Source: SAR202 cluster bacterium (lineage in GTDB: Bacteria > Chloroflexota > Dehalococcoidia > Lucifugimonadales > UBA6927). From it: 64,000 bases of DNA. How positions within the stretch are numbered: the first letter of the stretch is position 1; every line of letters begins with the position of its first letter. Below, one piece after another: positions 27,030 through 61,306 of this stretch. The notes under the pieces are model-generated. The model ran no database searches, had not been told where the DNA came from, and worked only from the letters and a program-made list of their open reading frames with translations. The translations under genes were made by a program, and so were the position numbers. The DNA is taken from assembly GCA_022447855.1 (NCBI GenBank), contig JAKUTX010000001.1:236435-300434 (forward strand). Reading direction: 5' to 3'.

Positions 27030-27040
27030 ATGATCAACTC

Positions 27041-28414: not shown

Positions 28415-28422
28415 TATACAAC

Positions 28423-30571: not shown

Positions 30572-30582
30572 TAAATATCATA

Positions 30583-32862
30583 TTAATGCCCATCAGAACC
30601 CACATCGGGAGTAACTTTAATAATATGTTGATTTTCATCTCGTGGGAATTCCGAGAAGGTATTTTCTAATTTCGGAACTCTCATCCATTCACCTGTCTTC
30701 TCAATACGAACTTTCGAAGAAGCCCAGGCTAATGCTCCACTTTCTTCATCTATACTTGGGGTTAGAATTCCCATGACATTCGAACCACGATTTTCACTAT
30801 AACGACCTCCAGAAATATGACCCTGACCAATAGGAACAGAAAGAACTCCAGGAGGAACTGCAGGATGAGGAAATGCTAAAACTTGAATAGCCTTTCCGCT
30901 AGCTGAAATAACATTAATTACATCACCTTCTGAAATATCGAGTTTTTCAGCATCTGAGACGTTAATTTCGAGCCAAGTCTGCCAAGTTGCAGTTGTAATT
31001 GGATCAGGGGTAGCCTGTAACCAAGGCAAGAACGCCCCTTCTCCATTCCCAATACCTGTCGAAGTAAATGGAATCAAATGATATGGGAACTGACTCGGAG
31101 AGTGATCAAATTCTGGATTTTTGGGGACAGGAACAGCAGAAATAGTCGGAATATCACCCTGATATTTCGAATCCTTATCCCACCATCCTCCTCGCTGCAA
31201 AACCCCATACCAAAACGCATCAAAATCCCCGGCAGTAACGGAGCCCCTATTTTCTCTCCATAAATCCTCAGCACCTGCCTTAAGAATTTCTGCAAATGTA
31301 GAGCCAGGCAATCCTAAATCTAAACCTAACTGGGGAGCCAAACCAATCATAATATCTGCAAAATTCTTGGTCCCAAGCTCTTCACCCAAATTCTCATAAA
31401 ACGGCCTTACAACAGGCTGCTGAAATCCAATCAATTGATATCCAGGAGCCGGGTCAGGTATGTCACTACCCCAATCTTCAAACGCATCATGTTCAGGCAA
31501 TATGAGATCAGCCATAGCTGTAGTGTCGTCTAAAAAGTTAGATACTGCAAAAATAAATGGCACTTCAAAACTTGCTCGTCTAAACCCAGAATCTTCAGGC
31601 ACTCCGTCCCATGGATCTGCTCCTCTAATCATCAAGGCACTAATTTCCCCTCGAGACCTTTCCTGGGATAAATTTCTAAAATCTCCAAAAGAGGCAGACT
31701 TCTCACTAAAAGTAGACATTGGAGGTTCAGGATTGAAAATCACCCCTCCTTCAACCCCAACACTCCCCACAAGATAATTCAACCAATAAACGGCTTTCAT
31801 ATTGAAAAGCCCATTAGTGTGAGCAGCAGCAGACCCTCCTCCAATAGCTAAAGCAGGAGGATGCGAAGCAAATTCATGAGCAATTGACCGAATCTTTTCA
31901 GCTGACACACCCACATCTGAAGCAATTTTCTCGGGTGAGTATTGTTCAATAATTTCTATGTCTCCTGAACTCAATCCATTTCGAATTGAATCATCCACCA
32001 ATCCATCAGATAAAATTACATTTGCAATCCCAACAGCCAATATTCCTTCCCATCCGGGATTAACAGGAACCCATTGGTCCGCATTAGCTGCAGTAGCTGA
32101 GAATCTTGGATCAACATGAACAAGAGTACCTCTTTCTTCTCGACCTTTTCCTTGTCGAAATTCCCCATAAGCTTTCATGTATCTAGTGGGAGATGTCCAA
32201 GTATTCAACCAGTCAGCACCAAACGACAATATGTAATTTGATTTTGAAATATCAAAATCGGGCATTATTTCTTGAGAATAGATATCTTTAATTGCTCGAG
32301 AAATATTTGTCTGCTCAATGGTCTCGTACTGGAGATGACGACCCCCAAACCTCGAAACAAAACGTTGAGTTACATCACCCAAATGAGCAGAAAGTGGATT
32401 AGTTACCATCACTAAACCATTTTGTTTCCCTTCGGTCTGCAAAATTTGAAGCTGATTTGTAATTCTTGCAAGAGCATCACTCCAACCAATTTCATTAAAT
32501 TCTCCCTTGCCCCTATCACCTACCCTAAGCAAAGGACGATCAATCCGATCTGGATTGTAAACAGATTGCAAACTAGCCTCGCACCGAGCAGAGTGTTTAC
32601 CCATATTTATAGGATAATCAACATTCCCCTCAACCTTTTTGGCACGTCCTTCAAAAACCCTAACAACCAAACCTTCCGCAGTTGGACATTGCCTACACAA
32701 GGTTGCATACCAATTATCTAAACCTGTAACCAAATCTTCGGGCATTTGATGTGGCGAATTAATATACCTTGATTCTTCAGGAACTCCACAAGCAGCAAAC
32801 AAAACAGCACCAGTCGCAGACCCGCCAACCATTTGTAGAAATTGTCTTCTTGTTAAATCCAT
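30583..32862 (-). CDS. actB: Alternative Complex III molybdopterin-oxidoreductase-like subunit (ActB1) with Tat signal
   Basis: MDLTRRQFLQMVGG twin-arginine leader at ATG 32862. The track start at 32934 overlaps actA. Large MopB-like domain. The N-terminal Fe-S Cys motif is reduced to CRQC. Confidence 0.85.
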   Translation of the reverse strand: MDLTRRQFLQMVGGSATGAVLFAACGVPEESRYINSPHQMPEDLVTGLDNWYATLCRQCPTAEGLVVRVFEGRAKKVEGNVDYPINMGKHSARCEASLQSVYNPDRIDRPLLRVGDRGKGEFNEIGWSDALARITNQLQILQTEGKQNGLVMVTNPLSAHLGDVTQRFVSRFGGRHLQYETIEQTNISRAIKDIYSQEIMPDFDISKSNYILSFGADWLNTWTSPTRYMKAYGEFRQGKGREERGTLVHVDPRFSATAANADQWVPVNPGWEGILAVGIANVILSDGLVDDSIRNGLSSGDIEIIEQYSPEKIASDVGVSAEKIRSIAHEFASHPPALAIGGGSAAAHTNGLFNMKAVYWLNYLVGSVGVEGGVIFNPEPPMSTFSEKSASFGDFRNLSQERSRGEISALMIRGADPWDGVPEDSGFRRASFEVPFIFAVSNFLDDTTAMADLILPEHDAFEDWGSDIPDPAPGYQLIGFQQPVVRPFYENLGEELGTKNFADIMIGLAPQLGLDLGLPGSTFAEILKAGAEDLWRENRGSVTAGDFDAFWYGVLQRGGWWDKDSKYQGDIPTISAVPVPKNPEFDHSPSQFPYHLIPFTSTGIGNGEGAFLPWLQATPDPITTATWQTWLEINVSDAEKLDISEGDVINVISASGKAIQVLAFPHPAVPPGVLSVPIGQGHISGGRYSENRGSNVMGILTPSIDEESGALAWASSKVRIEKTGEWMRVPKLENTFSEFPRDENQHIIKVTPDVGSDGH

Positions 32863-32875
32863 AATATTTTCATCC

Positions 32876-33589
32876 CTAATAGTGACACACTGCACACTCC
32901 GCAGGCGCATTATTATCTCGGTGACAATTAACACAGTCTCCCATTTTTAATGGGCGAACTTGCTTAACTTTTGACATAGAACCTACATCTCCGTGACATA
33001 CTGCACAGACTTCCGACGATTCCACATTGATTACATCCCCTGCTTGAAGATCTGAATTACGTTTCATCTTTTGTGCATCATGCAAATATATTTGAGACTC
33101 TGGATTGGTCATTGTTTCAACAACGGTTTTACCTTCCCCAGAAAAACGTTTGATATGAGCATCATGAACAAACTGAACATGATCAGGAACTCTATGTATT
33201 CTAATCCAATTAATGCTTTTATCGAGATCGTAGTATTCTCGCAACTTAGCGACTTCTTCAGAATCATCCCCTACCACTTTGTGACAGGTCATACATAGTG
33301 ACACTGCCGGAACGGAGGCAGAAGCACCTTTTTCTACGTTCCTATGACAAAAAGTACAGTCCATTCCCAACTCTTGAACGTGTGTGGTATGAGGAAAAGC
33401 AATTGGTTGATCAGGCCCTTCATCATATCCAAACACAATTGGCCTTGCCCACCATGAAGAAATAATAAAAGTGAGTACTAAACCAAGTACAATTAAAACT
33501 CCTAAAGTAGAAGCTAAAGCCACCAACCCCAATATAACTCTTTTACGAGTAGGTTTAAGAATTTGTATGTCAAAATCGCCAGGAAGCAA
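32876..33589 (-). CDS. actA: Alternative Complex III pentahaem cytochrome c subunit
   Basis: Five CxxCH motifs (CTFCH, CMTCH, CAVCH, CVNCH, CAVCH) after one N-terminal TM helix. Confidence 0.88.
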   Translation of the reverse strand: MLPGDFDIQILKPTRKRVILGLVALASTLGVLIVLGLVLTFIISSWWARPIVFGYDEGPDQPIAFPHTTHVQELGMDCTFCHRNVEKGASASVPAVSLCMTCHKVVGDDSEEVAKLREYYDLDKSINWIRIHRVPDHVQFVHDAHIKRFSGEGKTVVETMTNPESQIYLHDAQKMKRNSDLQAGDVINVESSEVCAVCHGDVGSMSKVKQVRPLKMGDCVNCHRDNNAPAECAVCHY

Positions 33590-45909: not shown

Positions 45910-47130
45910 TTGGCGATGTCAAATTACTTAAATACCCTTCAAGAAGCAGTTGATATCCTCTCGAATGGAACTCATTCTTGGATGGAAAGACTTTTCTCTA
46001 AAGGACCTACCGCAGAATTAAAAAATCTCAGTTCTATGAATGTTTGGAACGGATGGATGACTTGGCAAGCAGATTATCGTCCTGCAGATACTGGTTATTT
46101 AACAGGTAGGTTGTGGCTTCTTTATATACTTACAGGTGAGGACGATTTTAAAAACTGGGCTATCCAGTTGATTAAAGGCATGTCATCTGATCTCATAAGG
46201 TACCCTCAACTAAGTCATGTTTCAGGAGTAGATACATATTATGGTCCTGCCTGGGGATATGACATTACTGGAGAAGAAGCTTTTAAAACGCTTTCTTTGA
46301 AATCTGCACAAAATCAAATTGATTCCATATTTAGTGAGAAAACAAACGTGTTTTATTTATCTCATGGTAGAAATGTGGTCAATATTGATTGCACTGCTTT
46401 TTTACTTGATCAGCCATGGGCTGGTAGATACGACAATAAATTTATGGATTATTTCAAAAAGCATAACGACGAAATCTTAAACCTACGAATGGTAAGAAAA
46501 GAAGGCAACTACTTCCAAGTAGCTTATTTTGATTCAAATGAAGAATTCGACTACCTCACTACACACCAAGGATGGAGAGTCGATAGTACTTGGGCAAGAG
46601 GACAAAGTTGGGGAATGCATAATTTCTGTGCCGCATACGAGTCAACTGGAAATGAAAATTACTTGAATGCCGCAATTAAAATGTGTGATTGGTGGGTTTC
46701 TCACAACCCTTCAGATTATATCCCATTCTATGACTTTGAAGACCCCGAGGCATTTAAAAGACCAAAGGATTCTTGTGCCGCGGCAATGGCTGCAACCGCT
46801 CTAATGAGAATATCAAGATACGTTCCAGAAAAGAGTAATTCGTACCAACCTATAATTGAGGGAATATTAACCGAATTAACCGAAAATTATCTCAGCATCG
46901 GCGGCCAATTATTACATGGCAGCTGGGGAAACACCGTTGGTAGATGGAGTAGAGAGTTACGGTTTCCACAAGAAGATATCGTCGCATATGGCAATTACTA
47001 TTTCGTGGAATCCATTTTTCGGCAGCTAGTTCCTGACTGGAGTTTATTTGAATTAAACCCTAAGAACACAAAAATGAACCCACAAATTGCTCAAGACATG
47101 ATTAGCAACCAAATGGATCATCAAAAATGA
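45910..47130 (+). CDS. GH88-like (unsaturated glucuronyl hydrolase family) protein, copy 1
   Basis: By eye it aligns to Bacillus UGL blocks: TGRLWLLYILTG, THQGWRVDSTWARGQSWG, YDFEDP...KDSCAAAMAATAL, YGNYYFVES. ATG 45916 is an alternative start. Confidence 0.7.
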   Translation: MAMSNYLNTLQEAVDILSNGTHSWMERLFSKGPTAELKNLSSMNVWNGWMTWQADYRPADTGYLTGRLWLLYILTGEDDFKNWAIQLIKGMSSDLIRYPQLSHVSGVDTYYGPAWGYDITGEEAFKTLSLKSAQNQIDSIFSEKTNVFYLSHGRNVVNIDCTAFLLDQPWAGRYDNKFMDYFKKHNDEILNLRMVRKEGNYFQVAYFDSNEEFDYLTTHQGWRVDSTWARGQSWGMHNFCAAYESTGNENYLNAAIKMCDWWVSHNPSDYIPFYDFEDPEAFKRPKDSCAAAMAATALMRISRYVPEKSNSYQPIIEGILTELTENYLSIGGQLLHGSWGNTVGRWSRELRFPQEDIVAYGNYYFVESIFRQLVPDWSLFELNPKNTKMNPQIAQDMISNQMDHQK

Positions 47131-48314
47131 ATGAATCAAAAGCCTTCCGATTTAACTCGGAACCCGAGAACCAAAAATACCTCGACATATTAGACTATTC
47201 CATGAATATAGTTGCGGATGGTTCAAATTTGCAAATGAAGCATTTATTCGATGGAGGTAATTCAGGAAAAATTCAGAGAATGAATAATCGTACAGGTCGT
47301 TATAGCCTTGGACCAAATTACGCTTCTGGAGATGTTGGATTATTGATTGGAAGATTATGGTTATTATTTTTGCATTCAGGAAAAACTCAATTTCAAAAAT
47401 GGGCCCTAGATTTAATCAGCCAAATTGAGGAAGACCTTTTAAACAAGGCTTCATTCGATTGTTCTTCTACTTTAGATGTTTTTTTTGGATTGAATCACAC
47501 TGCTAAAATAACTGGTTTAGAAAAATGGAAATATCTTTTCTCTAAAGTGTCCTCAACCATATCAAATGAATTTTGGAATGAAACTGCAAAGTGTTTTGTT
47601 TCAACAAAATATGAAGAAAAACAATTATCCATGGATATAACAGGGGGGATGCTCCCATTACATTCTGAAAACATTTCTAAGAAATCAGAAGAAAGACTCA
47701 TTAAACATTTCGATACAATTTTAGACTTAAACATGATTAGACCAAATGGATCAGTAAGACAATGTGCCGTTTTCGATTCATTTAGTGATTTTTCACACTA
47801 TTCAACAAATCATGGATATGAAGTATTTGATTCGGTTGCCAAAACTCATGCCTCATCAATGCTAAACTTCATTTCTGTTTATGAAATCACTGGACATCAA
47901 AGATTCCTGGACGCAACAATAAAATTGGCAAACTATTGGTGCGAATCAATCCCCGAGGATTGGGTCCCGAGGTACGATTTTACCGACCCTGACCCAAAAA
48001 CCAAACCAAAAGATTCTTGTGCTGCCTCAATTGCAGTTGTTGCAATGATTCGTTTATGTAAAATTCGTCCAGAATTAAATGCACACTATCGTTTAATCAT
48101 TGAAGAAACCCTAAAAACCCTCTCTAAAAAGTACTTAGCTGAGGGAGGTATCCTTTTACATAGTAGTTGGGGTGACCAAAGATGGCACTCAGCTCTCAAA
48201 TTCAAACCTGTACCGTCAAACCTAGTCTTCCCACAAGAAGAAATTCTTCCACTTGGAAATTATTTTTTTGTGGAAGCTATTTTCAGGGAACTAAATCCAA
48301 GTATAAAAATCTAA
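47127..48314 (+). CDS. GH88-like protein, copy 2 (tandem paralog)
   Basis: Same blocks in diverged form (IGRLWLLFLHSG, YDFTDP...KDSCAASIAVVAM, LGNYFFVEA). The ATGA overlaps the stop of copy 1. Confidence 0.7.
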   Translation: MNESKAFRFNSEPENQKYLDILDYSMNIVADGSNLQMKHLFDGGNSGKIQRMNNRTGRYSLGPNYASGDVGLLIGRLWLLFLHSGKTQFQKWALDLISQIEEDLLNKASFDCSSTLDVFFGLNHTAKITGLEKWKYLFSKVSSTISNEFWNETAKCFVSTKYEEKQLSMDITGGMLPLHSENISKKSEERLIKHFDTILDLNMIRPNGSVRQCAVFDSFSDFSHYSTNHGYEVFDSVAKTHASSMLNFISVYEITGHQRFLDATIKLANYWCESIPEDWVPRYDFTDPDPKTKPKDSCAASIAVVAMIRLCKIRPELNAHYRLIIEETLKTLSKKYLAEGGILLHSSWGDQRWHSALKFKPVPSNLVFPQEEILPLGNYFFVEAIFRELNPSIKI

Positions 48315-48316
48315 AT

Positions 48317-49990
48317 TTATTTTCTACCAGCAATTAACCTAGCCATCTCAACTGCAAACCAGAGTGCCAAACTACCTGTACGATCATCATAGCCACATAC
48401 AGCAGTCCGATCTAAATAGTCACGAACAGATTCCATTGCTCCCGTACTTATGCAACCATCCATTACATCCCCATTGTCAGCTATCCTCTCACTTGCCCCA
48501 GTCCAAATTTTGTTCAACCATTCGAGATTTGAAGAATCGATCCAACCTTTCCGTAAACCCCTTGCAGCTGCATAACCTATCATGCAAGTACCTGTCATTT
48601 CCTCATAAGAGCCTTTCAAATCGATGATTTCAAGCCAACGTCCAGAAGGTTGTTGAAATTTTTTCAACCCATCCAACAATCTTCTGTATGAATCTAAAAT
48701 GAATGGCCGTTCAGGATGATCTTCAGGCAACACGGACAAAGTTTCAGTCAAACCTATCGCCGCGAACCCATTCCCTCTTCCCCAATAAATATCGGTATTT
48801 CTATCATGCATAAACAATCCGTCGCTTTTTTGGGTTTTCATATTTTTAAGAAAGGTAACAAGTTTCTGCAAATAAGATTTATCACCAGTTAAAGAGTAGG
48901 CTCTTCCCAATATCGACCCTAGCATAAACATATCCTCCGTTCTCCAAAGAGGATCAGCTGGATGAGGTGGATTGGATTCACTACCTTCCTCAAAGAGATT
49001 TGCAGCATCTACTATTGTTTGTTTATACCTTTGATCACCAGAAAATAAAAACATTTCATCTGCCCAAACCATTCCAGCAATATGAGCAGAACCCGCGGGA
49101 TTATCAGCATATGGATCAATTACACCAGAAACATAATTTTCTGTAAGTCCAGCGATTTCATGAATAGGGTTATTAGTTAGACCTCCATCCATTTCCCACA
49201 ACCTGATTCGACCACTGATTCCTACCCCTTGAACATAATTGATAGGGTTATCAAGTTTGTGTCCATACGTTGAAGCAAGTATCCGTGCTGTGGCAATTGG
49301 AGTTCTTTGCCTACGAGATTCCAGGGTTTTTTGTGCTTGTGAAGCCGGAAATGATCCAGACAATGCAATCAACTTCGAGAGTTCCGACACAACAGAATCT
49401 TCTGGAGAAGATAAACGAAATGCAGGAATGGCTCCTAACCCGCTCGCTCTTGAAAATCCTAATGCATTGACGAAAGAATTATCTTTTGAAACTGGATGTG
49501 CATTCAACTCAGTTGCAATCCCCTGAGCAGCCACATTTGATTCCCAGTGAACCACTTCAGCATTACAAACTTCTACCACTACATCAGGAGCCAAGTAAGA
49601 AACCCAACGCCACAGATATCTAGATTCCGGATTTTTTTCATCATTGAAAAATCCATCATTTGGAGGATATCCTAAAGATGGGCTTCCTCCAGATGAATTA
49701 TTCGGTGACATTGATCGTTCATAACCATCAATGTTAATACACGGAGCAAAACTAATGCTTAAAGTAGAATCAACACATGCTTCAATAGCTCTAAGTGAAG
49801 TGTTTACATCCGCCTCACTCCCAGATAGCCCCCCCACAATTGCAATATTCAAATTTGGAGCATTAACACTCTCTAAAAAAGGAATCTGCGTCTCTAAACG
49901 AGTTACCCCAAGAGCAGAATTATTCCACTGCTTAGAATTAAGTTGAGAAAATTCCTCAACTACTGAATGAATGTTTTTTAGATTTGGCAT
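48317..49990 (-). CDS. Two-domain protein: unknown N-terminal domain fused to a GH105/YteR-like unsaturated rhamnogalacturonyl hydrolase domain
   Basis: The C-terminal half has WGRGNGFAA, QQPSGRWLEIID and EEMTGTCMIGYAAARG blocks, as in GH105. I prefer ATG 49990 (GGAGA 6-7 nt upstream) over the track start at 50068. Confidence 0.65.
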   Translation of the reverse strand: MPNLKNIHSVVEEFSQLNSKQWNNSALGVTRLETQIPFLESVNAPNLNIAIVGGLSGSEADVNTSLRAIEACVDSTLSISFAPCINIDGYERSMSPNNSSGGSPSLGYPPNDGFFNDEKNPESRYLWRWVSYLAPDVVVEVCNAEVVHWESNVAAQGIATELNAHPVSKDNSFVNALGFSRASGLGAIPAFRLSSPEDSVVSELSKLIALSGSFPASQAQKTLESRRQRTPIATARILASTYGHKLDNPINYVQGVGISGRIRLWEMDGGLTNNPIHEIAGLTENYVSGVIDPYADNPAGSAHIAGMVWADEMFLFSGDQRYKQTIVDAANLFEEGSESNPPHPADPLWRTEDMFMLGSILGRAYSLTGDKSYLQKLVTFLKNMKTQKSDGLFMHDRNTDIYWGRGNGFAAIGLTETLSVLPEDHPERPFILDSYRRLLDGLKKFQQPSGRWLEIIDLKGSYEEMTGTCMIGYAAARGLRKGWIDSSNLEWLNKIWTGASERIADNGDVMDGCISTGAMESVRDYLDRTAVCGYDDRTGSLALWFAVEMARLIAGRK

Positions 49991-50165
49991 AATTTCTCCG
50001 CACAATGAACTAAACATAAATAATTTATCGATGCAAGGATACTTATGAACCCCCATTTGGTCAACCACATGAATTCAAAAAGGTATGATTAATTGACCAG
50101 TAAGACTCACTAATATAGACTTGCGATCGAAATTAATTCCAAATTTATATATTAAGGAGTATCCA

Positions 50166-52838: not shown

Positions 52839-52866
52839 TTGTGATATCAATCTGTAGCAGTATAAT
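52839..52866 (+). promoter_or_regulatory. Possible promoter of the corrinoid methyltransferase operon
   Basis: TTGTGA (52839-52844), 16-nt spacer, TATAAT (52861-52866), 29 nt before the ATG at 52895, in the 71-nt divergent gap. Confidence 0.35.
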
Positions 52867-52894
52867 GTATTAAAAATCTTTTTGGCAGTAGACA

Positions 52895-53800
52895 ATGCAA
52901 TCAAAAAAACCTCGCAATCTAACATTACTAGAAGCAATTTCTGAAAAAACAGTACTTATATCTGACGGTGCAACAGGGACATACTTACAAAATCATGGCC
53001 TGGAACCTGGTGGTTGTCCTGAAGAATTTAACTCAAGCCATCCGCAAGTCATTAGCCAAATGGCGAAAGACTATTTTGATGCAGGTTCCGATTTAGTACT
53101 AACAAATTCATTCGGCGGAAGTAATTTCATGCAAAAAAAATATGGGCATGGAGATAAAGTTTCTGAATTTAATCGTTTAGCTGCGCAGCATGCCAGAAGA
53201 GCCGCAGGACCTAATAATTACGTTCTGGGTTCAGTTGGACCAACGGGAGAATTTTTATCACCTCTAGGAGATGTTTCTGAAAAAGAAATGTCTCTTGCTT
53301 TTAAAGAACAAATGATTGCCTTAAAGGAAGGTGGAGCTGACGCAATATTAATTGAAACCATGACCGCAATTGAAGAAATTTCACTTGCAATCAATGTAGC
53401 AAAAGAAAGTACAAATCTGCCGGTTATTGCGACTATGGTTTTTGACAAAGGACCAAGAGGGTTTTTTACTATGATGGGAATCACTCCAGAGCGTGCGGCT
53501 AAGGAATTAACCTCTGCAGGTGCTGATATTATAGGAACAAATTGTGGTAATGGTATCGACTTAATGATTGAAATAGCACAACAAATGAGAGCGTCTACAG
53601 ACAAGCCTATGATAGTACATTCAAATGCTGGCATCCCTACAGTAAAGAATGGAGAAATAATATACCCAGAAACTCCTGAATACATGACAGAACGATTCAT
53701 AAAAATTGTGGAACTAGGGGTTAACATTGTTGGTGGATGCTGTGGTACCGGACCAGATCACATTAAGTTATTATCAAAAACCCTAAAACCGTCAGCATAA
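52895..53800 (+). CDS. Homocysteine S-methyltransferase-domain protein (MetH Hcy-domain / BHMT / MmuM fold)
   Basis: LISDGATGTYL, LTNSFGG and the zinc Cys triad context GTNCGNG ... VGGCCGTGPDHI. 301 aa, so a stand-alone domain. Confidence 0.8.
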   Translation: MQSKKPRNLTLLEAISEKTVLISDGATGTYLQNHGLEPGGCPEEFNSSHPQVISQMAKDYFDAGSDLVLTNSFGGSNFMQKKYGHGDKVSEFNRLAAQHARRAAGPNNYVLGSVGPTGEFLSPLGDVSEKEMSLAFKEQMIALKEGGADAILIETMTAIEEISLAINVAKESTNLPVIATMVFDKGPRGFFTMMGITPERAAKELTSAGADIIGTNCGNGIDLMIEIAQQMRASTDKPMIVHSNAGIPTVKNGEIIYPETPEYMTERFIKIVELGVNIVGGCCGTGPDHIKLLSKTLKPSA

Positions 53801-53813
53801 AGGAATAACAAGT

Positions 53814-54491
53814 ATGTATGCAGAAAATTCAACAAAAGACTCAGAAATTTCAAAGGTTTTCAAAAATTTTGGCAGTTGTGTAGAACTAATCCCTATAGAT
53901 CCACACTTCCAAAATGTTTCCATTGGGTTATATGTCCAAAATTCCATCTGCTCCATCTGGTCATTCAGTCAGAAAAAGGGCATCCAAAAAAGGATCGAAC
54001 ACATTCGCGATCAAATGATCCATCTTGGCGATTTAGAACCTATACAGGAATCATTCAATCAAGCCAAATTCCCATGCGGAATAATCCACCAAAGACCATT
54101 AAGGTTTTTAATCTCTCAAGCTACAAATAAAAATCCTGATTTCAAGCATCCATCAGGTGATATTACTATCCAAGACTCAAAGTCAGACCTCAAAATTACT
54201 GCCACACCCAGGGAAAATAATGGAAGTTGGGACTATGCTATAGAGGGAAAAGGTGAAGCGAAGAATGCTTCACTAAGAATCAAAATGATCGTTGCCGGTT
54301 TTATGAAATATGGTGAAATGATAAAAACTTCAGATACTTCTGTAGCATTTGAGTGTGGAAAAAACCATGATAATTTAATGAGAATAATTTTGCCTTATTC
54401 AAGAAATATTTCTAGTGTCGAAGGGATGATGGAAACTGAGGCTCTAAGAGGACAAATGACTACAGGCACGCTAGGATTTAGTGTCACATAA
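53814..54491 (+). CDS. Hypothetical protein (225 aa) inside the corrinoid operon
   Basis: ORF with AAGGA SD-like sequence. 13-nt and 36-nt gaps to its neighbours. No recognisable motif or TM segment. Confidence 0.5.
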   Translation: MYAENSTKDSEISKVFKNFGSCVELIPIDPHFQNVSIGLYVQNSICSIWSFSQKKGIQKRIEHIRDQMIHLGDLEPIQESFNQAKFPCGIIHQRPLRFLISQATNKNPDFKHPSGDITIQDSKSDLKITATPRENNGSWDYAIEGKGEAKNASLRIKMIVAGFMKYGEMIKTSDTSVAFECGKNHDNLMRIILPYSRNISSVEGMMETEALRGQMTTGTLGFSVT

Positions 54492-54527
54492 AAATAAATT
54501 AGTGATAGAATTTGTGAAGGAGCCCAA

Positions 54528-55559
54528 ATGATTTCAGAAATTCCAATGACATCGAAACAAAGAGTGCTTAATTCACTGAATGGTATTCCAGTAGATCGGA
54601 CTCCTTGTGCAAACCCAACAAGTGTTGCAACTGTTGAACTCATGGATCTAGTTAATGCACCTTTTCCAGAAGCTTGTAGAGAACCCGAACTAGCTGCAAG
54701 TCTAGCTGCAACAGGTTACACTGAATTGGGATTCGACAGCATATCACCATATTTTTCAATTATTCAAGAGTCCTCCGCACTGGGATGCGACGTACAATGG
54801 GAAGAAAAAGACAACTGGCCGACTGTGAGAATGTATAATCCTATTTGGAAAAATCCTGAGGATATCAAAATTCCGAAAAATTTCTTACAACATCGCGATA
54901 CCAAAGTACTAACAAAATCTATAGAAATGCTAAGTTCCGCATATGGAGATGAAACTGCTATTATAGGTAAAACCATGGGTCCTTGGACTCTAGCGTATCA
55001 TGTGTTCGGAGTAGAACCATTCCTATTAATGTCAGTTGATGACCCCAAACTTACTTTGGATGTACTTCATAGATTGAAAGAAATATCAGTTTTATTTGGA
55101 GAGGCGCAAATTGATGCAGGTGCTGACGCACTAACTTTCCCTGACCACGCAACTGGAGACCTAGTCAGCGGTGAGTACTACAAAAGATTTCTTATGGAAA
55201 TTCATATAGAAATGGCTGAAAGATTAAAAGTGCCCTTAATTTTACATATATGCGGAAACACTCTAGATAGAATGGAATATATTGCCAAAACTGGAATGGC
55301 GTCTTTTCATTTTGATTCTAAAAATGATCCCCAAAAGGCTATGGACACTGTCGACGGTAAAATAAGTTTAGTTGGAAACATTAACAATCCAGACACTTTG
55401 TATTCTAAAGGACCTGAAGAAGTTCGTGCGGAAGTGTTCAAATGCCTTAACGCAGGAGTACAAATGGTAGCTCCTGAATGCGCTGTCCCTTTATCCACAA
55501 AACTTGAAAATTTGATAGAAATCCCAAGAGCGGTAAAAGCTTGGCACAAAGAAAATTAA
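54528..55559 (+). CDS. URO-D-fold methyltransferase (MtaA/MtbA/MtsA/CmuA family)
   Basis: 343 aa. GAAGGAG SD. Zinc motif LHICGN (H-x-C) plus a downstream Cys in APECAV, as in methylcobamide:thiol methyltransferases. Confidence 0.75.
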   Translation: MISEIPMTSKQRVLNSLNGIPVDRTPCANPTSVATVELMDLVNAPFPEACREPELAASLAATGYTELGFDSISPYFSIIQESSALGCDVQWEEKDNWPTVRMYNPIWKNPEDIKIPKNFLQHRDTKVLTKSIEMLSSAYGDETAIIGKTMGPWTLAYHVFGVEPFLLMSVDDPKLTLDVLHRLKEISVLFGEAQIDAGADALTFPDHATGDLVSGEYYKRFLMEIHIEMAERLKVPLILHICGNTLDRMEYIAKTGMASFHFDSKNDPQKAMDTVDGKISLVGNINNPDTLYSKGPEEVRAEVFKCLNAGVQMVAPECAVPLSTKLENLIEIPRAVKAWHKEN

Positions 55560-55574
55560 TTATAAGGATTTAAC

Positions 55575-56309
55575 ATGCCGATAAACCACGATGGTTTGAA
55601 CGAGGAAATATCTTATGTCTCTAATGAATCAGAAATACAACACATAAAAGGTCTTTTTGACAACTCCGATCCTAAAATGCACGAAATTGCTCATAAGCTG
55701 ATAATTGGTGACCAACATTCAGTCGACGAATTAACTAAAAAAGCTCTTGATGACGGATTTACTGCTAATACAATCCTTGATGATGGATTGATTTCTGGAA
55801 TGGCGATAGTTGGAATCAAATTCCGTGACAATATTATTTTTGTTCCTGAAGTACTAATTGCTGCTAGAGCCATGAAAGCAGGAATGACCCACATCGAACC
55901 AATCTTGTCTGCCTCTGGAATTGAACCCATTGGAACAATCATTATGGGTACTGTAAAAGGAGACTTACACGATATCGGCAAAAACCTATGTATCATGATG
56001 CTCAGGGGTGCTGGATTTACTGTACATGATCTTGGAGTTGATACACAGTCTGAAGAATTTATTGAAGCAGTAATGGAACATGAAGCGCAGCTACTCGGAA
56101 TGTCAGCCCTGCTGACTACAACTATGCCCAATATGGGGAAAACCATAGACGCATTTGAAGAGACTGGAATTCGTAGTGAAGTCAAAATCCTAGTAGGAGG
56201 GGCTCCTGTATCTCAAGAATTAGCGGATGACATGGGTGCCGATGGGTATGGAAAAGACGCAATTGAATGTGTAGATCTAGCCAAAAAATTTGTTGCTATT
56301 AAAAATTGA
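55575..56309 (+). CDS. Corrinoid (cobalamin-binding) protein
   Basis: B12-binding cap helix domain followed by a Rossmann domain with DLHDIG (DxHxxG, nt 55962-55979), MSALLTTT and VGGAP. Confidence 0.88.
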   Translation: MPINHDGLNEEISYVSNESEIQHIKGLFDNSDPKMHEIAHKLIIGDQHSVDELTKKALDDGFTANTILDDGLISGMAIVGIKFRDNIIFVPEVLIAARAMKAGMTHIEPILSASGIEPIGTIIMGTVKGDLHDIGKNLCIMMLRGAGFTVHDLGVDTQSEEFIEAVMEHEAQLLGMSALLTTTMPNMGKTIDAFEETGIRSEVKILVGGAPVSQELADDMGADGYGKDAIECVDLAKKFVAIKN

Positions 56310-56321
56310 ATCGTATTTTCC

Positions 56322-56603
56322 ATGGGAATTAAAGACACCAAAAATCAAATTAATGAGGAACTCGTTAAAGACAAATATATCTCAAGCATGAAAAGACTAG
56401 ACCAGATCATGCGTGATATATCTGAGACCGTAACAGAAGTTTCTTTAAAACGATGCCCATATAGAAACTCTAAAGATCGGTGCACTGCAAAGTTTGGGTG
56501 TAGAAATCAATATAGAGATGTACAACCGAATGAATTATTCATTTGCCAAGATGACCAAAAGTTAGATTATCGCAATGCATGGGAAATGGAATCTGAACCC
56601 TAA
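56322..56603 (+). CDS. Small Cys4 protein of unknown function
   Basis: 93 aa. Four Cys spaced C-x8-C-x5-C-x14-C. Located between the corrinoid protein and the activase genes. Confidence 0.45.
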   Translation: MGIKDTKNQINEELVKDKYISSMKRLDQIMRDISETVTEVSLKRCPYRNSKDRCTAKFGCRNQYRDVQPNELFICQDDQKLDYRNAWEMESEP

Positions 56604-56646
56604 AACATCTCAAAAAATTCGATAAACTCCATGTTACAATACTCAC

Positions 56647-58269
56647 ATGTCTCCTGTACGATGCTCTGGACAAGTAATAGAATCAAAAATCGGATCCTCT
56701 TTATTCGATTATGCTGATGCAATCAATGTGCGTGTGCCTACCTCCTGTGGTAGAAATGGACAATGCCATGAATGTATTGTTGAAATCAACTCTGGAGGAG
56801 AATTTTTAAATGATTCTACTGAGGAAGAATTCTTCCTAGGGGAAAAATTTCGATTGGCTTGTCAAGCAAAGATTACAGATGCAGACAAAACAATCGAATT
56901 TTCTATATTGCGCAGACAACCCAAAATCCTCATCGAATCGATTAATCGCTCTGTCTCAACAGACCCAATGGTTCAAAGAAACGGCGATACAGTAACTTTT
57001 AATGGGTCCTATCTAGATCAATACAGAAACTCCATCTTAGGAATCGCCGCAGATATAGGAACAACCACAATAGTTATGAATTTGGTCGATTTAGAAACTT
57101 CCAATATCTTAGCCACTTCATCATTTGAAAACCCTCAAAAATTTGGTGGAAGCGACATCATGAATAGAATTTCATATGATGGTGGCAAATTTAAAGGCGA
57201 ATTAAGACAAGTCATGCTATCTGCTTTAAATTTTGAAATCGGAGAGATTACCAAACAAAACAATCTTCATAGAAGACAAATCTACGAAGCTGTATTCGTC
57301 GGAAATTCTACAATGAGAGATTTGTTATTCAATTATGATGTGCAGTCAATTGGTCAAAAACCTTACAGATCAATCACTGAAACCCTTTTCCTGAATGGAG
57401 AAATCGATTCAACTGCATTAAATATGAAAGCAAATGATTTTGGATTAAGAATTTTCCCGGATGCGAATATTTATGGTGGTCCATTAATAGGTAGCCATGT
57501 TGGATCAGATGTTGCAGCCGATATTCTAAGCACTGAAATTGGAGAGAAAAAAGACATCTCAATGCTAGTCGACATAGGTACAAACACTGAAGTAGTTTTG
57601 GGCAACGAAGAAAAAATGATAGTAGCATCTTGTCCTGCAGGGCCAGCATTTGAAGGTGGAGAGATTTCATATGGCATGCCTGGATATGATGGAGCAATAG
57701 AATCACTTATGTTTTCAGAAAGTGGGACAGAATACAGAACTATCGGAAACAAAAAGCCTCAAGGGATTTGTGGATCTGGTTTAATTCAAATTTTATCTGA
57801 ATTATTACGAACACAACAGATGAATGAACTGGGGGTTTTCGATAACAAAAAGCAAAAAATTGTCCTAGAGCCCACCCAAGAAATTTCTATTTCAAGATCA
57901 GATGTTAGTTCATTAGCTCAAGCCAAATCAGCTAATTACGCGGGGCAATTCATTACAATGCGTTCATACGGGATTAATACAAATCAAATTTCAAAACTTT
58001 ACTTAGCAGGAGGATTCGCAAACTACATCGACCCAGAATGCGCAATAGGAATCGGATTTCTTCCCAATATTTCTCCAAAAAAAATCACAAAAGTTGGAAA
58101 CGCTTCACTAGAAGGAGCAACCATAATGCTAAAATCAAAATTTCATCGCAGACAAATAGAAGAAAAAGTTAAATCTATTGAACATATCGAATTAGAAACT
58201 TTCGATGATTTTTTTGAAATTTTCGTTGAAGGATGCATGTTTAAACCAATGCCGAAAACCCTTGTATGA
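56647..58269 (+). CDS. Reductive activase of corrinoid enzymes (RACE/RamA-like; 2Fe-2S ferredoxin domain plus ASKHA ATPase, DUF4445-type)
   Basis: N-terminal CGRNGQCHEC...C plant-type 2Fe-2S motif. GIAADIGTTTIV and LVDIGTNTEV ASKHA phosphate loops. 540 aa. Confidence 0.8.
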   Translation: MSPVRCSGQVIESKIGSSLFDYADAINVRVPTSCGRNGQCHECIVEINSGGEFLNDSTEEEFFLGEKFRLACQAKITDADKTIEFSILRRQPKILIESINRSVSTDPMVQRNGDTVTFNGSYLDQYRNSILGIAADIGTTTIVMNLVDLETSNILATSSFENPQKFGGSDIMNRISYDGGKFKGELRQVMLSALNFEIGEITKQNNLHRRQIYEAVFVGNSTMRDLLFNYDVQSIGQKPYRSITETLFLNGEIDSTALNMKANDFGLRIFPDANIYGGPLIGSHVGSDVAADILSTEIGEKKDISMLVDIGTNTEVVLGNEEKMIVASCPAGPAFEGGEISYGMPGYDGAIESLMFSESGTEYRTIGNKKPQGICGSGLIQILSELLRTQQMNELGVFDNKKQKIVLEPTQEISISRSDVSSLAQAKSANYAGQFITMRSYGINTNQISKLYLAGGFANYIDPECAIGIGFLPNISPKKITKVGNASLEGATIMLKSKFHRRQIEEKVKSIEHIELETFDDFFEIFVEGCMFKPMPKTLV

Positions 58270-58299
58270 TTAAGAATACTTATCGAAATGGAGTCAATA

Positions 58300-59301
58300 A
58301 TGTCATATAAAATCTTGATCACTGACTATGTCTGGCCAAACATTGAGCCAGAAAAAAAAGTACTATCTTCAATAGATGCTGAAATTATTGTTGCGCCAAA
58401 CTCTGACGAAAATACTCTTTGTTCACTAGCTAAAGATGTTGATGGGATTTTAACCTGTTTTGCTCAAGTCACAGAAAAAGTGATTCGCTCTGCAAAAAAA
58501 TGTGTAGTCATAGGAAGATATGGGGTTGGAGTTGATAACATTTCAGTAAGTACTGCAACTGATTTAGGCATCGCTGTAACATACGTTCCTGACTACTGTA
58601 TGGAAGAGGTGTCAGATCATGTTATAGGCTTAATGTTATGTTGGAACAGAAAAATAGCTTTTTTTGACTCCGACACCAAGCAAAATGCATGGGGCCATTC
58701 CCCCCTAACCATGAGAATAATGCGACTGAAAGGTAAAACTATTGGAATAGTAGGTTTCGGTAGGATTGGAAAAGCAGTAAGCCAAAAAGCAAAATCTTTT
58801 GGAATGAATATTCTAACTTATGACCCTTTTGTTTCCCAAACAGAAGCAGCCTCATTCGGAGTTAACTCAACCAGTCTTGAAAATCTGCTTCAATGTTCTG
58901 ATTTCGTTTCTCTGCACTCACCATATACAGAAGAGACACACAATATGATAGGACAAGAGCAATTAGATTTAATGAAATCCGATTCGTTCCTAATAAACTG
59001 CGCTAGGGGTCCATTAATTGACGAAGAAGCATTATTTGAAGCTTTAAAATCAAAAAATATTGCTGGAGCCGGCTTGGATGTTATGGTTGATTCTATACCT
59101 CCATCCAACCATCCTTTAATGAAATTGGATAACATATTGATTACTCCACACATTTCTTTTTTCTCCCAAGAATCCGTCCTCGAGCTTGAAGAACGTGCTG
59201 CCGAGGAAGTAAAATCCGTATTGCTTGGCCAAATGCCCGAAAACCTAGTCAACAAAGAAGTTCTTAAACACTCTCTACCAAGACACAAACTATCCAAATA
59301 A
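58300..59301 (+). CDS. D-isomer-specific 2-hydroxyacid dehydrogenase family protein
   Basis: GIVGFGRIGKAV NAD loop. Catalytic region ...NCARG...D...HISF. Start at ATG 58300 (GGAG upstream); the track start is 58288. Confidence 0.85.
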   Translation: MSYKILITDYVWPNIEPEKKVLSSIDAEIIVAPNSDENTLCSLAKDVDGILTCFAQVTEKVIRSAKKCVVIGRYGVGVDNISVSTATDLGIAVTYVPDYCMEEVSDHVIGLMLCWNRKIAFFDSDTKQNAWGHSPLTMRIMRLKGKTIGIVGFGRIGKAVSQKAKSFGMNILTYDPFVSQTEAASFGVNSTSLENLLQCSDFVSLHSPYTEETHNMIGQEQLDLMKSDSFLINCARGPLIDEEALFEALKSKNIAGAGLDVMVDSIPPSNHPLMKLDNILITPHISFFSQESVLELEERAAEEVKSVLLGQMPENLVNKEVLKHSLPRHKLSK

Positions 59302-59316
59302 GTTTTAAGCGATCTA

Positions 59317-60483
59317 ATGAATCCAACCACCATACTTGTCAAATTTCACGAAACTGCGCTTAAAGGTAGAAATAGACATATCTTCATTAATCGAATTTTG
59401 GATAATTTAAGAGTGGCAACTAAAGATTTACCGGTAAAAAATATTTGGCACAAAAGATTAATCATCGGTCTATCATTACATGAGGAAGCAAAAATACCAG
59501 AGATTGCAAAACGAATAACAAATTGTTTTGGGATAGCCAAATTCTACCCTGTATACGAAGTCGAAAAAAACCTAGAGTCCACCTTGAATCTATTGAAAGA
59601 AATTTTAGAACAAACAAAATTTGACACGTTTAGAATTACAGCAAAACGCCCGAGCAAAAACTTTAACCTCACATCAGATGAAATCAACCGAAAAGTCGGT
59701 ACTTTTGTAGAAGAATTAACCAAATCTAAAGTCCAACTCAAAAATCCTGACTTAGAAATATTTATAGAAGTGATGGACAAAAACATATTTATCCACACTG
59801 AAGAATTCAAAGGCTTTGGTGGAATGCCAGTAGGTGTCAGCGGAAGAGCAATGGCTCTAATGTCTGGAGGAATTGATTCTCCTGTGGCAATTTGGCAAAT
59901 GCTTAAACGAGGAACAACTGTAGATATGCTACATTTTCATAGTTATCCATTAGTGGATAAATCAAGTATCGAAAAAGCATTTGATCTAGCAAAAGTTTTG
60001 AATCAACATCAATACAAATCAAAACTTTTTTTGGCTCCCCTAAGCAAAATTCAACAAAAAATTATTGTAGAAGTTCCTCCTGAATATAGAGTATTACTTT
60101 ACAGAAGATTCATGATTAGAATTGCTGAAAAACTCGCTATACATAAAAAATCTATTGCTCTAATCACTGGAGAAAGCTTAGCCCAAGTAGCATCTCAAAC
60201 GCTTGAAAACATAGCAGCAATTGACGCAGCCGTAAAAATGCCAATCTTAAGACCATTAATTGGTACAAATAAAGATGAAATCATAGAACATTCAAAAAGA
60301 ATTGGCACTTTCGACATTTCTATCCGACCCGACCAAGACTGTTGTTCACTCTTTGTCCCCAAGCACCCAATTACTGCGGCTAAAGCCGAAATATTAGAAT
60401 CATTCGAGAATTCCTTGCCAATGAAAGAAATGATAGAAAGTTCAATCGAACAAACGACTGAAGAGAATTTTACATACCCATAA
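59317..60483 (+). CDS. thiI: tRNA 4-thiouridine synthase ThiI (no rhodanese domain)
   Basis: THUMP-type N-terminus (ILVKFHETALKGRNR) and PP-loop SGGIDSPVA. Confidence 0.88.
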   Translation: MNPTTILVKFHETALKGRNRHIFINRILDNLRVATKDLPVKNIWHKRLIIGLSLHEEAKIPEIAKRITNCFGIAKFYPVYEVEKNLESTLNLLKEILEQTKFDTFRITAKRPSKNFNLTSDEINRKVGTFVEELTKSKVQLKNPDLEIFIEVMDKNIFIHTEEFKGFGGMPVGVSGRAMALMSGGIDSPVAIWQMLKRGTTVDMLHFHSYPLVDKSSIEKAFDLAKVLNQHQYKSKLFLAPLSKIQQKIIVEVPPEYRVLLYRRFMIRIAEKLAIHKKSIALITGESLAQVASQTLENIAAIDAAVKMPILRPLIGTNKDEIIEHSKRIGTFDISIRPDQDCCSLFVPKHPITAAKAEILESFENSLPMKEMIESSIEQTTEENFTYP

Positions 60484-60529
60484 AATAAAAATTTGCAGTT
60501 ACTTTTTAATTCTATTGGAGGATAAAATA

Positions 60530-61306
60530 ATGGACTTACAAATTAAAGGGAAAGTAGCGCTTGTTACCGGTGGAAGTAGAGGCCTAGGGAAACAATGTGC
60601 GATTTCTTTAGTAAAAGAAGGTGTTAACGTCGCAATTTGCGGACGTTCAAAAAAAACTTTAGATGAAACCGTGGAAGAATTAAATTCTTTTGAAGGTTCA
60701 GCAATTGGAATCCAAGCAGATATTTCCATTAGCGAAGATCTAAATAGAATACCTTCATCGGTGACTTCAAAATTAGGACCTATTGATATCTTAGTAAACA
60801 ATGTTGGGGGGTCGTTGTCTCGAGAAGACATTCAAAAAACCTCCTTAGAAGATTTCAAAGCAACATTCGATTTAAATTTGTTTGGCAGCTTCGCATTAAT
60901 GAAGGCAGTAATCCCTCACATGATTGAACAAAAATGGGGCAGAATAATAAATATAGCAAGCATTTGGGGACGCGAGAATGGTGGAAATATTTCTTATATG
61001 TCTGCAAAAGCCGCTCTAATTGGTGCTACAAAAAACACAGCTATTTCATTAGCGAAAGATGGAGTTTTAGTAAATAGTATCGCTCCCGGATCTATAGAAC
61101 ACCCAGGGGGGAGTTGGGAAAGATTCCAAAATGAAAATCCTGAAAATGTTGTGGAAAATTTCATTGAGACCCACCTCCCAATGGGCAAATTCGGATGGCC
61201 AGAACCGGTTGGAGATATAGTGGCATTTCTAGCATCAGAAAGAGCTAGCCTTATTACTGGAGCTTGCATAGTAGTAGATGGAGGACAAAGTCATTCGATG
61301 ATCTAG
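60530..61306 (+). CDS. Short-chain dehydrogenase/reductase (SDR)
   Basis: VTGGSRGLG cofactor loop and YMSAKAA catalytic motif. ATG 60530 is preceded by GGAGGA (the track TTG 60515 is part of that SD). Confidence 0.88.
   Translation: MDLQIKGKVALVTGGSRGLGKQCAISLVKEGVNVAICGRSKKTLDETVEELNSFEGSAIGIQADISISEDLNRIPSSVTSKLGPIDILVNNVGGSLSREDIQKTSLEDFKATFDLNLFGSFALMKAVIPHMIEQKWGRIINIASIWGRENGGNISYMSAKAALIGATKNTAISLAKDGVLVNSIAPGSIEHPGGSWERFQNENPENVVENFIETHLPMGKFGWPEPVGDIVAFLASERASLITGACIVVDGGQSHSMI

Follow-up and report, generated by a model that had tools for sequence, protein, structure and literature searches.

Cobamide-dependent methyl transfer has been tied to methionine in two described settings. 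In the MtgBCDE system (PNAS 2025, PMC12478193) a demethylase and a stand-alone homocysteine module are linked directly through one corrinoid protein, and clusters combining an MtaA-like protein, a corrinoid protein and a RACE activase, without a folate methyltransferase, were proposed in 2023 to feed methionine (PMC10418091). Here we describe a seven-gene cluster found in a 64,000-nucleotide (nt) stretch of a SAR202 cluster bacterium genome (assembly GCA_022447855.1, contig JAKUTX010000001.1, positions 236,435 to 300,434; hereafter the window, whose first letter is position 1). As a sequence-only reading of the window had claimed, all seven open reading frames (ORFs) lie on the + strand, between 52895 and 59301. 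Their order is homocysteine S-methyltransferase (HcyMT), a 225-amino-acid (aa) protein, a URO-D-fold methyltransferase, a corrinoid protein, a 93-aa protein, a RACE-type reductive activase and a 2-hydroxyacid dehydrogenase, and the gaps between them measure 13, 36, 15, 12, 43 and 18 nt. We consider the chances about even that the cluster is a conserved multi-component cobamide-dependent methyl-transfer system with methionine as its output.

The cluster shares with the split MetH or MtgBCDE system of Phaeobacter inhibens and Ruegeria pomeroyi (PMC5764234, PMC12478193) a stand-alone PF02574 protein, a corrinoid protein made of a cap and a Rossmann domain, and a RamA-like reactivase with 2Fe-2S and ASKHA parts. 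Also shared with MtgBCDE are the aerobic marine bacterial hosts and the single corrinoid protein that would link a demethylase to methionine synthesis. MtgBCDE, however, includes a PF00809 module (MtgD), a donor methyltransferase of the MttB family (MtgB) and DUF1638, encoded by mostly dispersed genes, whereas the SAR202 cluster has an MtaA/CmuA-type URO-D protein, two novel families and usually a PF13769 protein, all in one place. Neither PF00809 nor DUF1638 (PF07796), the hallmarks of an MtgCDE-type synthase, was found in the cluster, among the window ORFs scanned (all those of at least 250 aa, plus the shorter genes flanking the cluster) or in related loci; for PF00809 the comparison extends about 10 kb around every related locus with precomputed Pfam annotation. 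The 225-aa and 93-aa proteins might substitute for DUF1638. The same window scan gave no match to PF01717, PF02219, PF06253 or PF02965, so that pterin-binding, MetE, MTHFR, MttB, MetH-activation and DUF1638 genes are all missing from the ORFs covered; the claim that no pterin-binding gene is present holds to that extent.

Type 1 mlp clusters (Kountz and Balskus, PMC10418091) likewise combine an MtaA-like URO-D protein bearing a His-Cys-Cys site with a corrinoid protein and a bacterial RACE, lack a tetrahydrofolate methyltransferase within the cluster, and have a proposed link to methyl-sulfur or methyl-selenium metabolism and methionine. They encode at least two distinct MtaA-like paralogues (Mlp2, Mlp3) and belong to obligate anaerobes, mostly Firmicutes. 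The SAR202-type cluster, in contrast, contains a single URO-D gene, here and in related loci, which places it outside the type; its second methyltransferase is the PF02574 protein, it includes the two novel proteins, and its hosts are SAR202, Tectimicrobiota, SAR324, Latescibacterota and Poribacteria from marine and sponge samples. The pairing of a URO-D-fold zinc methyltransferase with a corrinoid protein that is separate from it and depends on a RamA-type activase is also known from the methanogen MtsA/MtsB, MtpA/MtpC and MtaABC systems, but there the methyl group of methylthiol and MtaABC substrates goes to coenzyme M for methanogenesis, whereas the only other methyltransferase of the SAR202 cluster is the homocysteine module. 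MtsA is a URO-D-fold protein able to take methyl groups from thioethers. MtpA is another (bioRxiv 10.1101/548461). Finally, the core methionine synthases MesA, MesB and MesC (PMC7857596, PMC7005905) also make methionine from a methyl-corrinoid protein and bypass methyl-folate; they occur in strict anaerobes, have catalytic domains of the MetE type (Meth_synt_2) and are supplied by MtrA or CoFeSP, in contrast to the MetH-type PF02574 module and dedicated corrinoid protein of the SAR202 cluster.

The sequence-only reading knew of no description of a system in which a URO-D methyltransferase and two unknown proteins replace the methyl-tetrahydrofolate-binding part, and it overstated the novelty. 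As a concept, the coupling of demethylation to methionine synthesis is already in print (PMC12478193; proposed in PMC10418091; core synthases in PMC7857596); this particular architecture, its host range (SAR202, sponge symbionts) and its two novel families were found nowhere in the literature searched.

Homocysteine methyltransferase

The domain identities originally assigned to the cluster genes were borne out by Pfam and NCBIfam scans, and the catalytic motifs named with them (the zinc Cys triad, H-x-C...C and DxHxxG) are real. The first gene (52895..53800, + strand) encodes a stand-alone homocysteine S-methyltransferase of 301 aa, MetH/MtgE-like (PF02574, E 2.7e-66), which is the proposed methyl acceptor side of the system. 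On NCBIfam models it scores about equally as YitJ-type (267 bits) and as the alphaproteobacterial 'BHMT'/MtgE type (265 bits), followed by MetH (174 bits) and MmuM (85 bits). The alphaproteobacterial 'BHMT' has been argued by Mausz et al. to be the MtgE module of a split methionine synthase (PMC12478193). Among proteins of solved structure, Thermotoga maritima MetH (1q7m) is the best match at E 2.5e-53, as against 5e-21 for BHMT and 3.5e-7 for MmuM. The Cys triad of HcyMT (NCG...GGCCGT), conserved in 81 sequences, aligns with the NCS/GGCCGT cysteines of T. maritima MetH, which we take to be the zinc ligands of that enzyme. HcyMT groups with MetH-type homocysteine domains and not with the corrinoid-independent BHMT or MmuM enzymes, and it is co-conserved with corrinoid genes, the linkage being seen in 69 of 83 and 18 of 19 loci in the two collections described below.

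In one long-read SAR202 assembly (L024, 8661-9927) HcyMT is split over three ORFs, and no URO-D or corrinoid gene lies within 10 kb. Frameshifts in the assembly could explain this, or the system may be decaying in that lineage. Ten other loci likewise retain just the pair of HcyMT and 225-aa genes.

URO-D methyltransferase and candidate donor

The third gene (54528..55559, + strand) encodes a URO-D-fold zinc methyltransferase of the MtaA/CmuA family (343 aa; PF01208, E 7.4e-65), the proposed donor-side methyl-X:cob(I)amide methyltransferase. The protein passes the TIGR01463 mtaA_cmuA model (242.6 bits against a cut-off of 235.4) and falls below the equivalog cut-offs of the MtaA/MtbA models NF040654 and NF041608 (223 bits against 400 and 198 bits against 600, respectively); it should therefore not be called a coenzyme M (CoM) methyltransferase. 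Its best relative in the PDB is MtaA (4ay7, E 1.5e-46). The sequence H-I-C...PEC, whose ligands are conserved in 73 sequences, aligns with the HxC...C of 4ay7, presumably the zinc ligands of MtaA.

The label 'O-demethylase-type', given to this part of the cluster in the sequence-only reading, appears not to fit: among solved and modelled relatives the protein is closest to MtaA, and it keeps the His-Cys-Cys zinc site. A methyltransferase I (MT I) protein of the acetogen and Desulfitobacterium O-demethylases (OdmB/VdmB/MtvB clade) would be expected to have a zinc site with carboxylate ligands, or none. Within the URO-D family, MtsA and CmuA act on the donor side of their systems. MtpA (bioRxiv 10.1101/548461) and CdmB (PMC13222342) do so as well, and CdmB, a structurally characterised haloalkane MT I, has no zinc (PMC13222342). 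The His-Cys-Cys site was associated by Kountz and Balskus with sulfur or selenium rather than oxygen substrates (PMC10418091), and by their criteria the predicted zinc site of the SAR202 protein points away from O-demethylases. Because the His-Cys-Cys residues are kept and CdmB is zinc-free, we favour a methyl thioether or selenoether as the putative donor class. A methyl halide was also considered and appears less likely, on the same comparison with the zinc-free CdmB.

One SAR202 subclade has the cluster flanked by an HsaA/SfnB-like flavin monooxygenase and an Amidohydro_2 protein, together with an FNR-type flavin reductase and an SsuA-family (NMT1) binding protein, the matches being weak (L002 5204-7456 and 14671-16451; L001 1638-3960 and 15508-16428). 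These flanking genes are reminiscent of organosulfur acquisition and may give a hint to the donor class.

Corrinoid protein, activase and dehydrogenase

The gene at 55575..56309 (+ strand) encodes a corrinoid methyl carrier protein of 244 aa with a B12 cap and a Rossmann domain (PF02607 and PF02310). Its DxHxxG motif reads DLHDIG (within GDLHDIGKN) and is at least 95% conserved in 70 orthologues. Scores on MtgC/MtbC/MtaC-type models range from 126 to 204 bits, all below the equivalog cut-offs. The RACE/RamA-like, ATP-dependent reductive activase (540 aa; 56647..58269, + strand; Fer2, Raco_middle and RACo_C_ter) consists of an N-terminal 2Fe-2S ferredoxin domain, whose cysteines (CxxxxCxxC...C) are conserved in orthologues, joined to an ASKHA part; it scores 307 bits on an AcsV-type and 133 bits on a RamA-type model. 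The last gene (58288..59301, + strand) encodes a D-isomer-specific 2-hydroxyacid dehydrogenase of 337 aa (PF02826 and PF00389), which is phosphoglycerate dehydrogenase (PGDH)-like at 267 bits and glyoxylate-reductase-like at 241 bits, below the cut-off in both cases.

Two novel protein families

The 225-aa protein (53814..54491, + strand) belongs to a novel family made of two homologous repeats, each with an F-x-C-G-x-x-H motif (C88/H92 and C181/H185). Comparison of the two halves by hhalign gave a probability of 89.6% (E 1.9e-6). The protein has no match in Pfam, NCBIfam or the PDB, and 30 remote members of the family gave no consistent Pfam match at permissive thresholds. A word search returned at least 365 homologues; a profile search of 1.84e9 representative proteins returned 235 cluster representatives, including those of a remote subfamily that is 27-32% identical to the window protein. 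The AlphaFold2 (AF2) model (mean pLDDT 82) is an alpha+beta two-repeat fold, not a TIM barrel, and Foldseek found no match for it in the PDB. All SAR202-type members share C88, H92, C181 and H185, and in the remote subfamily each of these positions is conserved to 90% or more, which suggests a putative Cys2His2 metal site. The C-terminal tail (the last ~30 residues) is almost invariant, yet the model has low confidence there; a docking tail would be expected to behave in this way. The 225-aa protein is a putative metal-binding accessory or adaptor subunit.

The 93-aa protein (56322..56603, + strand), whose gene always lies between those for the corrinoid protein and RACE, represents a second novel family and combines an N-terminal helix with a Cys4 motif, RCPY(K/R)N-x4-CTA-x-F-x-CRNQ...C...LDYR-x-AW. 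Three of the four cysteines are invariant and the fourth is at least 90% conserved. No Pfam or NCBIfam match was obtained, and 19 members tried at permissive Pfam thresholds gave none that was consistent. The AF2 model is poor (pLDDT 60), showing a helix and a Cys knuckle, too poor for a fold search. Neither the 225-aa protein, with its alpha+beta model, nor the 93-aa protein looks like a pterin-binding TIM barrel, so that neither of these initially unassigned ORFs supplies the pterin module that was noted as absent.

Co-conservation of the cluster

Conservation of the gene order was examined from two independent anchors, and from both the cluster is strongly co-conserved. The first anchor was the 225-aa protein, whose family is carried by 235 species-representative genomes, mostly Dehalococcoidia/SAR202 with some Entotheonella/Tectimicrobiota and SAR324. 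Of these, 83 loci were examined; HcyMT was a neighbour in 80, URO-D in 72, the corrinoid protein in 69, the 93-aa protein in 68, RACE in 37 and the dehydrogenase in 28, with order and strand identical throughout. The second anchor was the URO-D protein in marine metagenomes (528 relatives, of which 19 loci offered at least 6 kb on each side). The corrinoid and 93-aa proteins were present in all 19, HcyMT, the 225-aa protein and RACE in 18 each, and the dehydrogenase and a PF13769 protein in 16 each, the usual marine order being PF13769, HcyMT, 225-aa, URO-D, corrinoid protein, 93-aa, RACE, dehydrogenase. The dehydrogenase follows RACE in 28 of 37 loci by the first anchor and 16 of 19 by the second, is absent from the Latescibacterota-type clusters described below, and is a lineage-specific accessory gene.

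The PF13769 'Virulence_fact' protein (86-127 aa) lies directly upstream of HcyMT in related loci (e.g. L097 4516 and L092 15484-15744); it accompanies the PF02574 gene in those 16 metagenome loci and in Latescibacterota-type clusters. The window contains no homologue of it, and no mention of PF13769 was found in the literature searched. About 30 SAR202 loci (among them L001, L002, L003 and L024; e.g. L002 8898-10704) have an insertion between the 225-aa and URO-D genes that encodes a DUF4268 protein (~320 aa), then a DUF433/DUF5615 pair resembling a toxin-antitoxin, and sometimes Uma2 or N6_N4 methylase/HNH genes. The insertion resembles a mobile or defence cassette that lands preferentially at this site. 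The linkage of the cluster survives these DUF4268 and DUF433/DUF5615 insertions.

More distant loci were examined by individual contig look-ups. On Latescibacterota-type contigs the order is rearranged to 225-like protein, URO-D, corrinoid protein, Cys4 protein, RACE, PF02574 and PF13769, the small protein bearing the same Cys4 motif as the 93-aa protein; one short contig shows the same start of the rearranged cluster. In Poribacteria only the pair of 225-like and URO-D genes is kept together. Identities between the window proteins and these cross-phylum copies are 66-69% for URO-D (72-79% within SAR202), 60-67% for the corrinoid protein and 49-52% for RACE; they are 35-47% for the 93-aa protein, 27-32% for the 225-aa protein and 25-29% for HcyMT. 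That the same six genes stay together in two orders, despite very different degrees of divergence, is a strong argument for a single functional unit. The data also suggest that the cluster is built of two sub-modules, URO-D/corrinoid/93-aa/RACE and HcyMT/225-aa/PF13769. The gap in divergence between URO-D/corrinoid (window 54528-56309) and HcyMT/225-aa was compared in L086, L089, L090, L092 and L093; either the constraints differ greatly, or the URO-D/corrinoid/RACE core was horizontally transferred between phyla.

The Latescibacterota-type clusters lie among lipA, gidA and adk. An APH-family kinase found next to them was considered as a methylthioribose or homoserine kinase and rejected: it accompanies lipA, the genes that come between it and the cluster differ among contigs, and its match to MtnK is only weak. 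In 13 SAR202 loci the cluster is adjoined by thrC. The product is a bona fide threonine synthase (549 bits) and therefore gives no evidence for a MetM-type homocysteine route.

Proposed pathway and alternatives

Two methyltransferases, one corrinoid protein and one activase make up the standard donor-carrier-acceptor logic, and a stand-alone PF02574 module is known to take its methyl group from a separate corrinoid protein (PMC5764234, PMC12478193). With the domain identities, the metal and B12 motifs and the co-conservation established, we infer a direction of flow, a donor-side methyltransferase, a donor class and roles for the 225-aa and 93-aa proteins as follows. RACE would use ATP and an electron from its own 2Fe-2S domain to reduce the corrinoid protein to Co(I). 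The MtaA/CmuA-type zinc enzyme would then take a methyl group from a small methylated compound, forming CH3-Co(III) on the corrinoid protein; the His-Cys-Cys site points to a methyl thioether (dimethyl sulfide, methanethiol or methylmercaptopropionate) or a selenium analogue as the likely donor. The Cys3-zinc site of HcyMT would activate homocysteine, which would accept the methyl group to give methionine and Co(I). The 225-aa and 93-aa proteins may serve as obligate accessory subunits, the one perhaps an adaptor or substrate-binding partner and the other a metal or electron helper, while PF13769 and the 2-hydroxyacid dehydrogenase would be lineage-dependent extras. Given exactly two methyltransferases alongside a single corrinoid protein and a single RACE, the sequence donor, MtaA-like enzyme, cobalt, HcyMT, methionine is the most economical reading.

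The original proposal of a rewired split MetH fed by a demethylase is thus retained as the best explanation, given the MetH-type grouping of HcyMT and the cross-phylum co-conservation; in it, the donor-side role of the URO-D protein and the bypass of folate are predictions. In its fullest form, to which we give somewhat less than even credence, the cluster would be a self-contained, folate-independent and cobamide-dependent methionine synthase of new architecture, served by a non-folate donor (e.g. methylated sulfur) through the MtaA-type enzyme, with the two novel metal-binding families as obligate parts, and widespread in abundant aerobic marine and sponge lineages.

Several observations weigh against this proposal. 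MtaA and MtbA, the characterised proteins closest to the URO-D protein, are acceptor-side enzymes, and the cluster has no consistently linked transporter or catabolic gene from which a donor could be named. In 11 SAR202 loci the HcyMT and 225-aa genes occur as a pair, with no URO-D or corrinoid gene within 10 kb. The neighbours lipA, gidA, adk and thrC fit a methionine synthase with a housekeeping role, and such an enzyme would depend on an endogenous donor, for instance methyl-tetrahydrofolate (CH3-THF). The pterin module of Ruegeria and Phaeobacter is encoded apart from the corrinoid and homocysteine modules (PMC12478193, PMC5764234), so its absence from a cluster does not prove its absence from the pathway. 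Lastly, purified Phaeobacter Bmt, a stand-alone PF02574 protein, makes methionine in vitro from dimethylsulfoniopropionate (DMSP) or betaine without cobalamin (PMC12366255).

Part of this evidence could be accommodated by a housekeeping split cobalamin-dependent methionine synthase, in which an unlinked MtgD-type pterin protein methylates the corrinoid protein from CH3-THF and the MtaA-like protein is a second, bidirectional port for thiols and thioethers, comparable to MtgB with glycine betaine in Ruegeria. It seems conceivable, if on balance unlikely, that the cluster works in this way. The dispersal of parts around one shared corrinoid protein in Ruegeria and Phaeobacter (PMC12478193, PMC5764234) offers a precedent, the Latescibacterota-type neighbours and the 13 thrC-adjoining loci agree with it, and HcyMT scores on the MtgE/'BHMT' model (265 bits) about as well as on any. 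Yet all other parts are tightly linked, and a PF00809 gene is found neither within about 10 kb of the annotated loci nor among the ORFs scanned in the 64-kb window; DUF1638, the RamA partner in the alphaproteobacterial system, is likewise absent from the cluster.

Alternatively, the MtaA-like and 225-aa proteins might together form a donor module of a new kind that serves an endogenous methyl source (CH3-THF or a different pterin or cofactor), making the cluster a complete, self-contained methionine synthase of new architecture. The genes for the two adjoin directly in Latescibacterota- and Poribacteria-type loci. The cross-phylum identities of URO-D (66-69%) and the corrinoid protein (60-67%) are unusually high, as expected for a universal substrate, and Kountz and Balskus (PMC10418091) considered that a folate methyltransferase yet to be discovered might be found among MtaA-like proteins. 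We nevertheless hold this arrangement to be improbable, since no URO-D-fold enzyme is known to bind a pterin, a His-Cys-Cys zinc site has no role in activating an N5-methyl group, and the model of the 225-aa protein is not a TIM barrel and matches no folate-binding fold.

The flow might also run in reverse, with methionine or another thioether demethylated on the PF02574 module and the MtaA-like enzyme methylating a thiol, as MtaA does with coenzyme M, so that a methylated thiol is formed or methyl groups are drained from methionine. MtsA-type enzymes carry out thioether/thiol methyl exchange via corrinoids. Such exchange is near equilibrium, and among characterised proteins those closest to the URO-D protein are methylcobamide:thiol methyltransferases. 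The only direction known for MetH-type homocysteine modules, however, is towards methionine, the cluster has no linked gene for using up a methylated thiol, and oligotrophic marine bacteria would gain no obvious benefit, all of which makes reversal very improbable.

Least probable of all is that the PF02574 protein acts alone as a cobalamin-independent betaine-, DMSP- or S-methylmethionine-homocysteine methyltransferase and is a mere neighbour of an unrelated MtaA-type corrinoid system. Direct methionine formation from DMSP or betaine by purified Phaeobacter Bmt (PMC12366255) speaks for this reading, as do the 11 loci in which HcyMT and the 225-aa protein are found without nearby corrinoid genes and the much faster divergence of HcyMT (25-29% identity across phyla) compared with the URO-D and corrinoid proteins. 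Against it, HcyMT stays linked to the corrinoid, URO-D and RACE genes in two gene orders across phyla, and its sequence groups with MetH, not with BHMT or MmuM. All the other alternatives still treat the cluster as one corrinoid methyl-transfer system.

Boundaries of the cluster and its surroundings in the window

A ~70-nt divergent intergenic region upstream of the first gene contains a pair of promoter-like hexamers, TTGTGA-16-TATAAT (52839..52866, + strand; 10/12 matches). Position 52839, where the sequence-only reading had the locus begin, is the first base of this pair and not a codon position. The number of promoter-like sites in the region is not above the shuffled expectation, and the pair is weak evidence. 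No riboswitch or leader was found at Rfam gathering thresholds in the window and four loci, and the region upstream of the cluster gave no Rfam match even at E up to 1.

Downstream, tight spacing runs on past the cluster: thiI (tRNA 4-thiouridine/thiamine sulfurtransferase) begins 15 nt after the dehydrogenase gene, and a short-chain dehydrogenase/reductase (SDR) gene follows 31 nt further on (window 59317-61306). Spacing alone therefore cannot delimit the operon. ThiI is co-located in just 2 of the 83 loci, and it is comparative genomics, not spacing, that delimits the unit. The synteny with thiI and SDR is seen only in the closest relative (L004) and in L011, and therefore probably reflects genome compaction and not shared function. 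On the other side of the cluster, an alpha/beta hydrolase was considered as a MetX and rejected, having generic hydrolase matches only.

The closest database proteins come from marine 'Chloroflexi / SAR202' metagenome-assembled genomes. The rest of the window holds a ribosomal-protein/secY/rpoA region, a molybdopterin oxidoreductase complex, pantothenate genes, and enolase-superfamily, luciferase-like and GH88 genes. The complex is Psr/ACIII-like (26505-33589, minus strand), with a molybdopterin oxidoreductase of 783 aa, a 4Fe-4S subunit, an NrfD-type membrane subunit and a 465-aa protein without any Pfam match; the stretch has a strongly negative GC skew. At 45910-48314 (+ strand) lie two adjoining ORFs of 406 and 395 aa without Pfam or NCBIfam match, next to a ThuA-like gene and a gene for a protein with a GH88-like C-terminal domain (48317-50068, minus strand). 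The stretch at 119-2611 encodes an S-Me-THD-like protein (PF06032/PF20906) and, after it, a hydantoinase/oxoprolinase-family protein and a major facilitator superfamily transporter, a pairing that is poorly characterised.

Implications

The cluster is carried by SAR202 and by sponge-symbiont phyla, which belong to the most abundant uncultured heterotrophs in the dark ocean and in sponges. If methionine is indeed made there from methylated sulfur or another non-folate donor, the cluster would represent a new route by which the turnover of organosulfur or methyl compounds leads directly into amino-acid synthesis, and it would add to the cobalamin demand of the lineages that bear it. The automatic annotations 'CoM methyltransferase' and 'BHMT' now attached to cluster genes would be corrected, and two protein families without Pfam coverage, with hundreds of members each, would gain their first functional context. 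The system would extend the principle of MtgBCDE, by which one corrinoid protein serves interchangeable donor and acceptor modules in aerobes.

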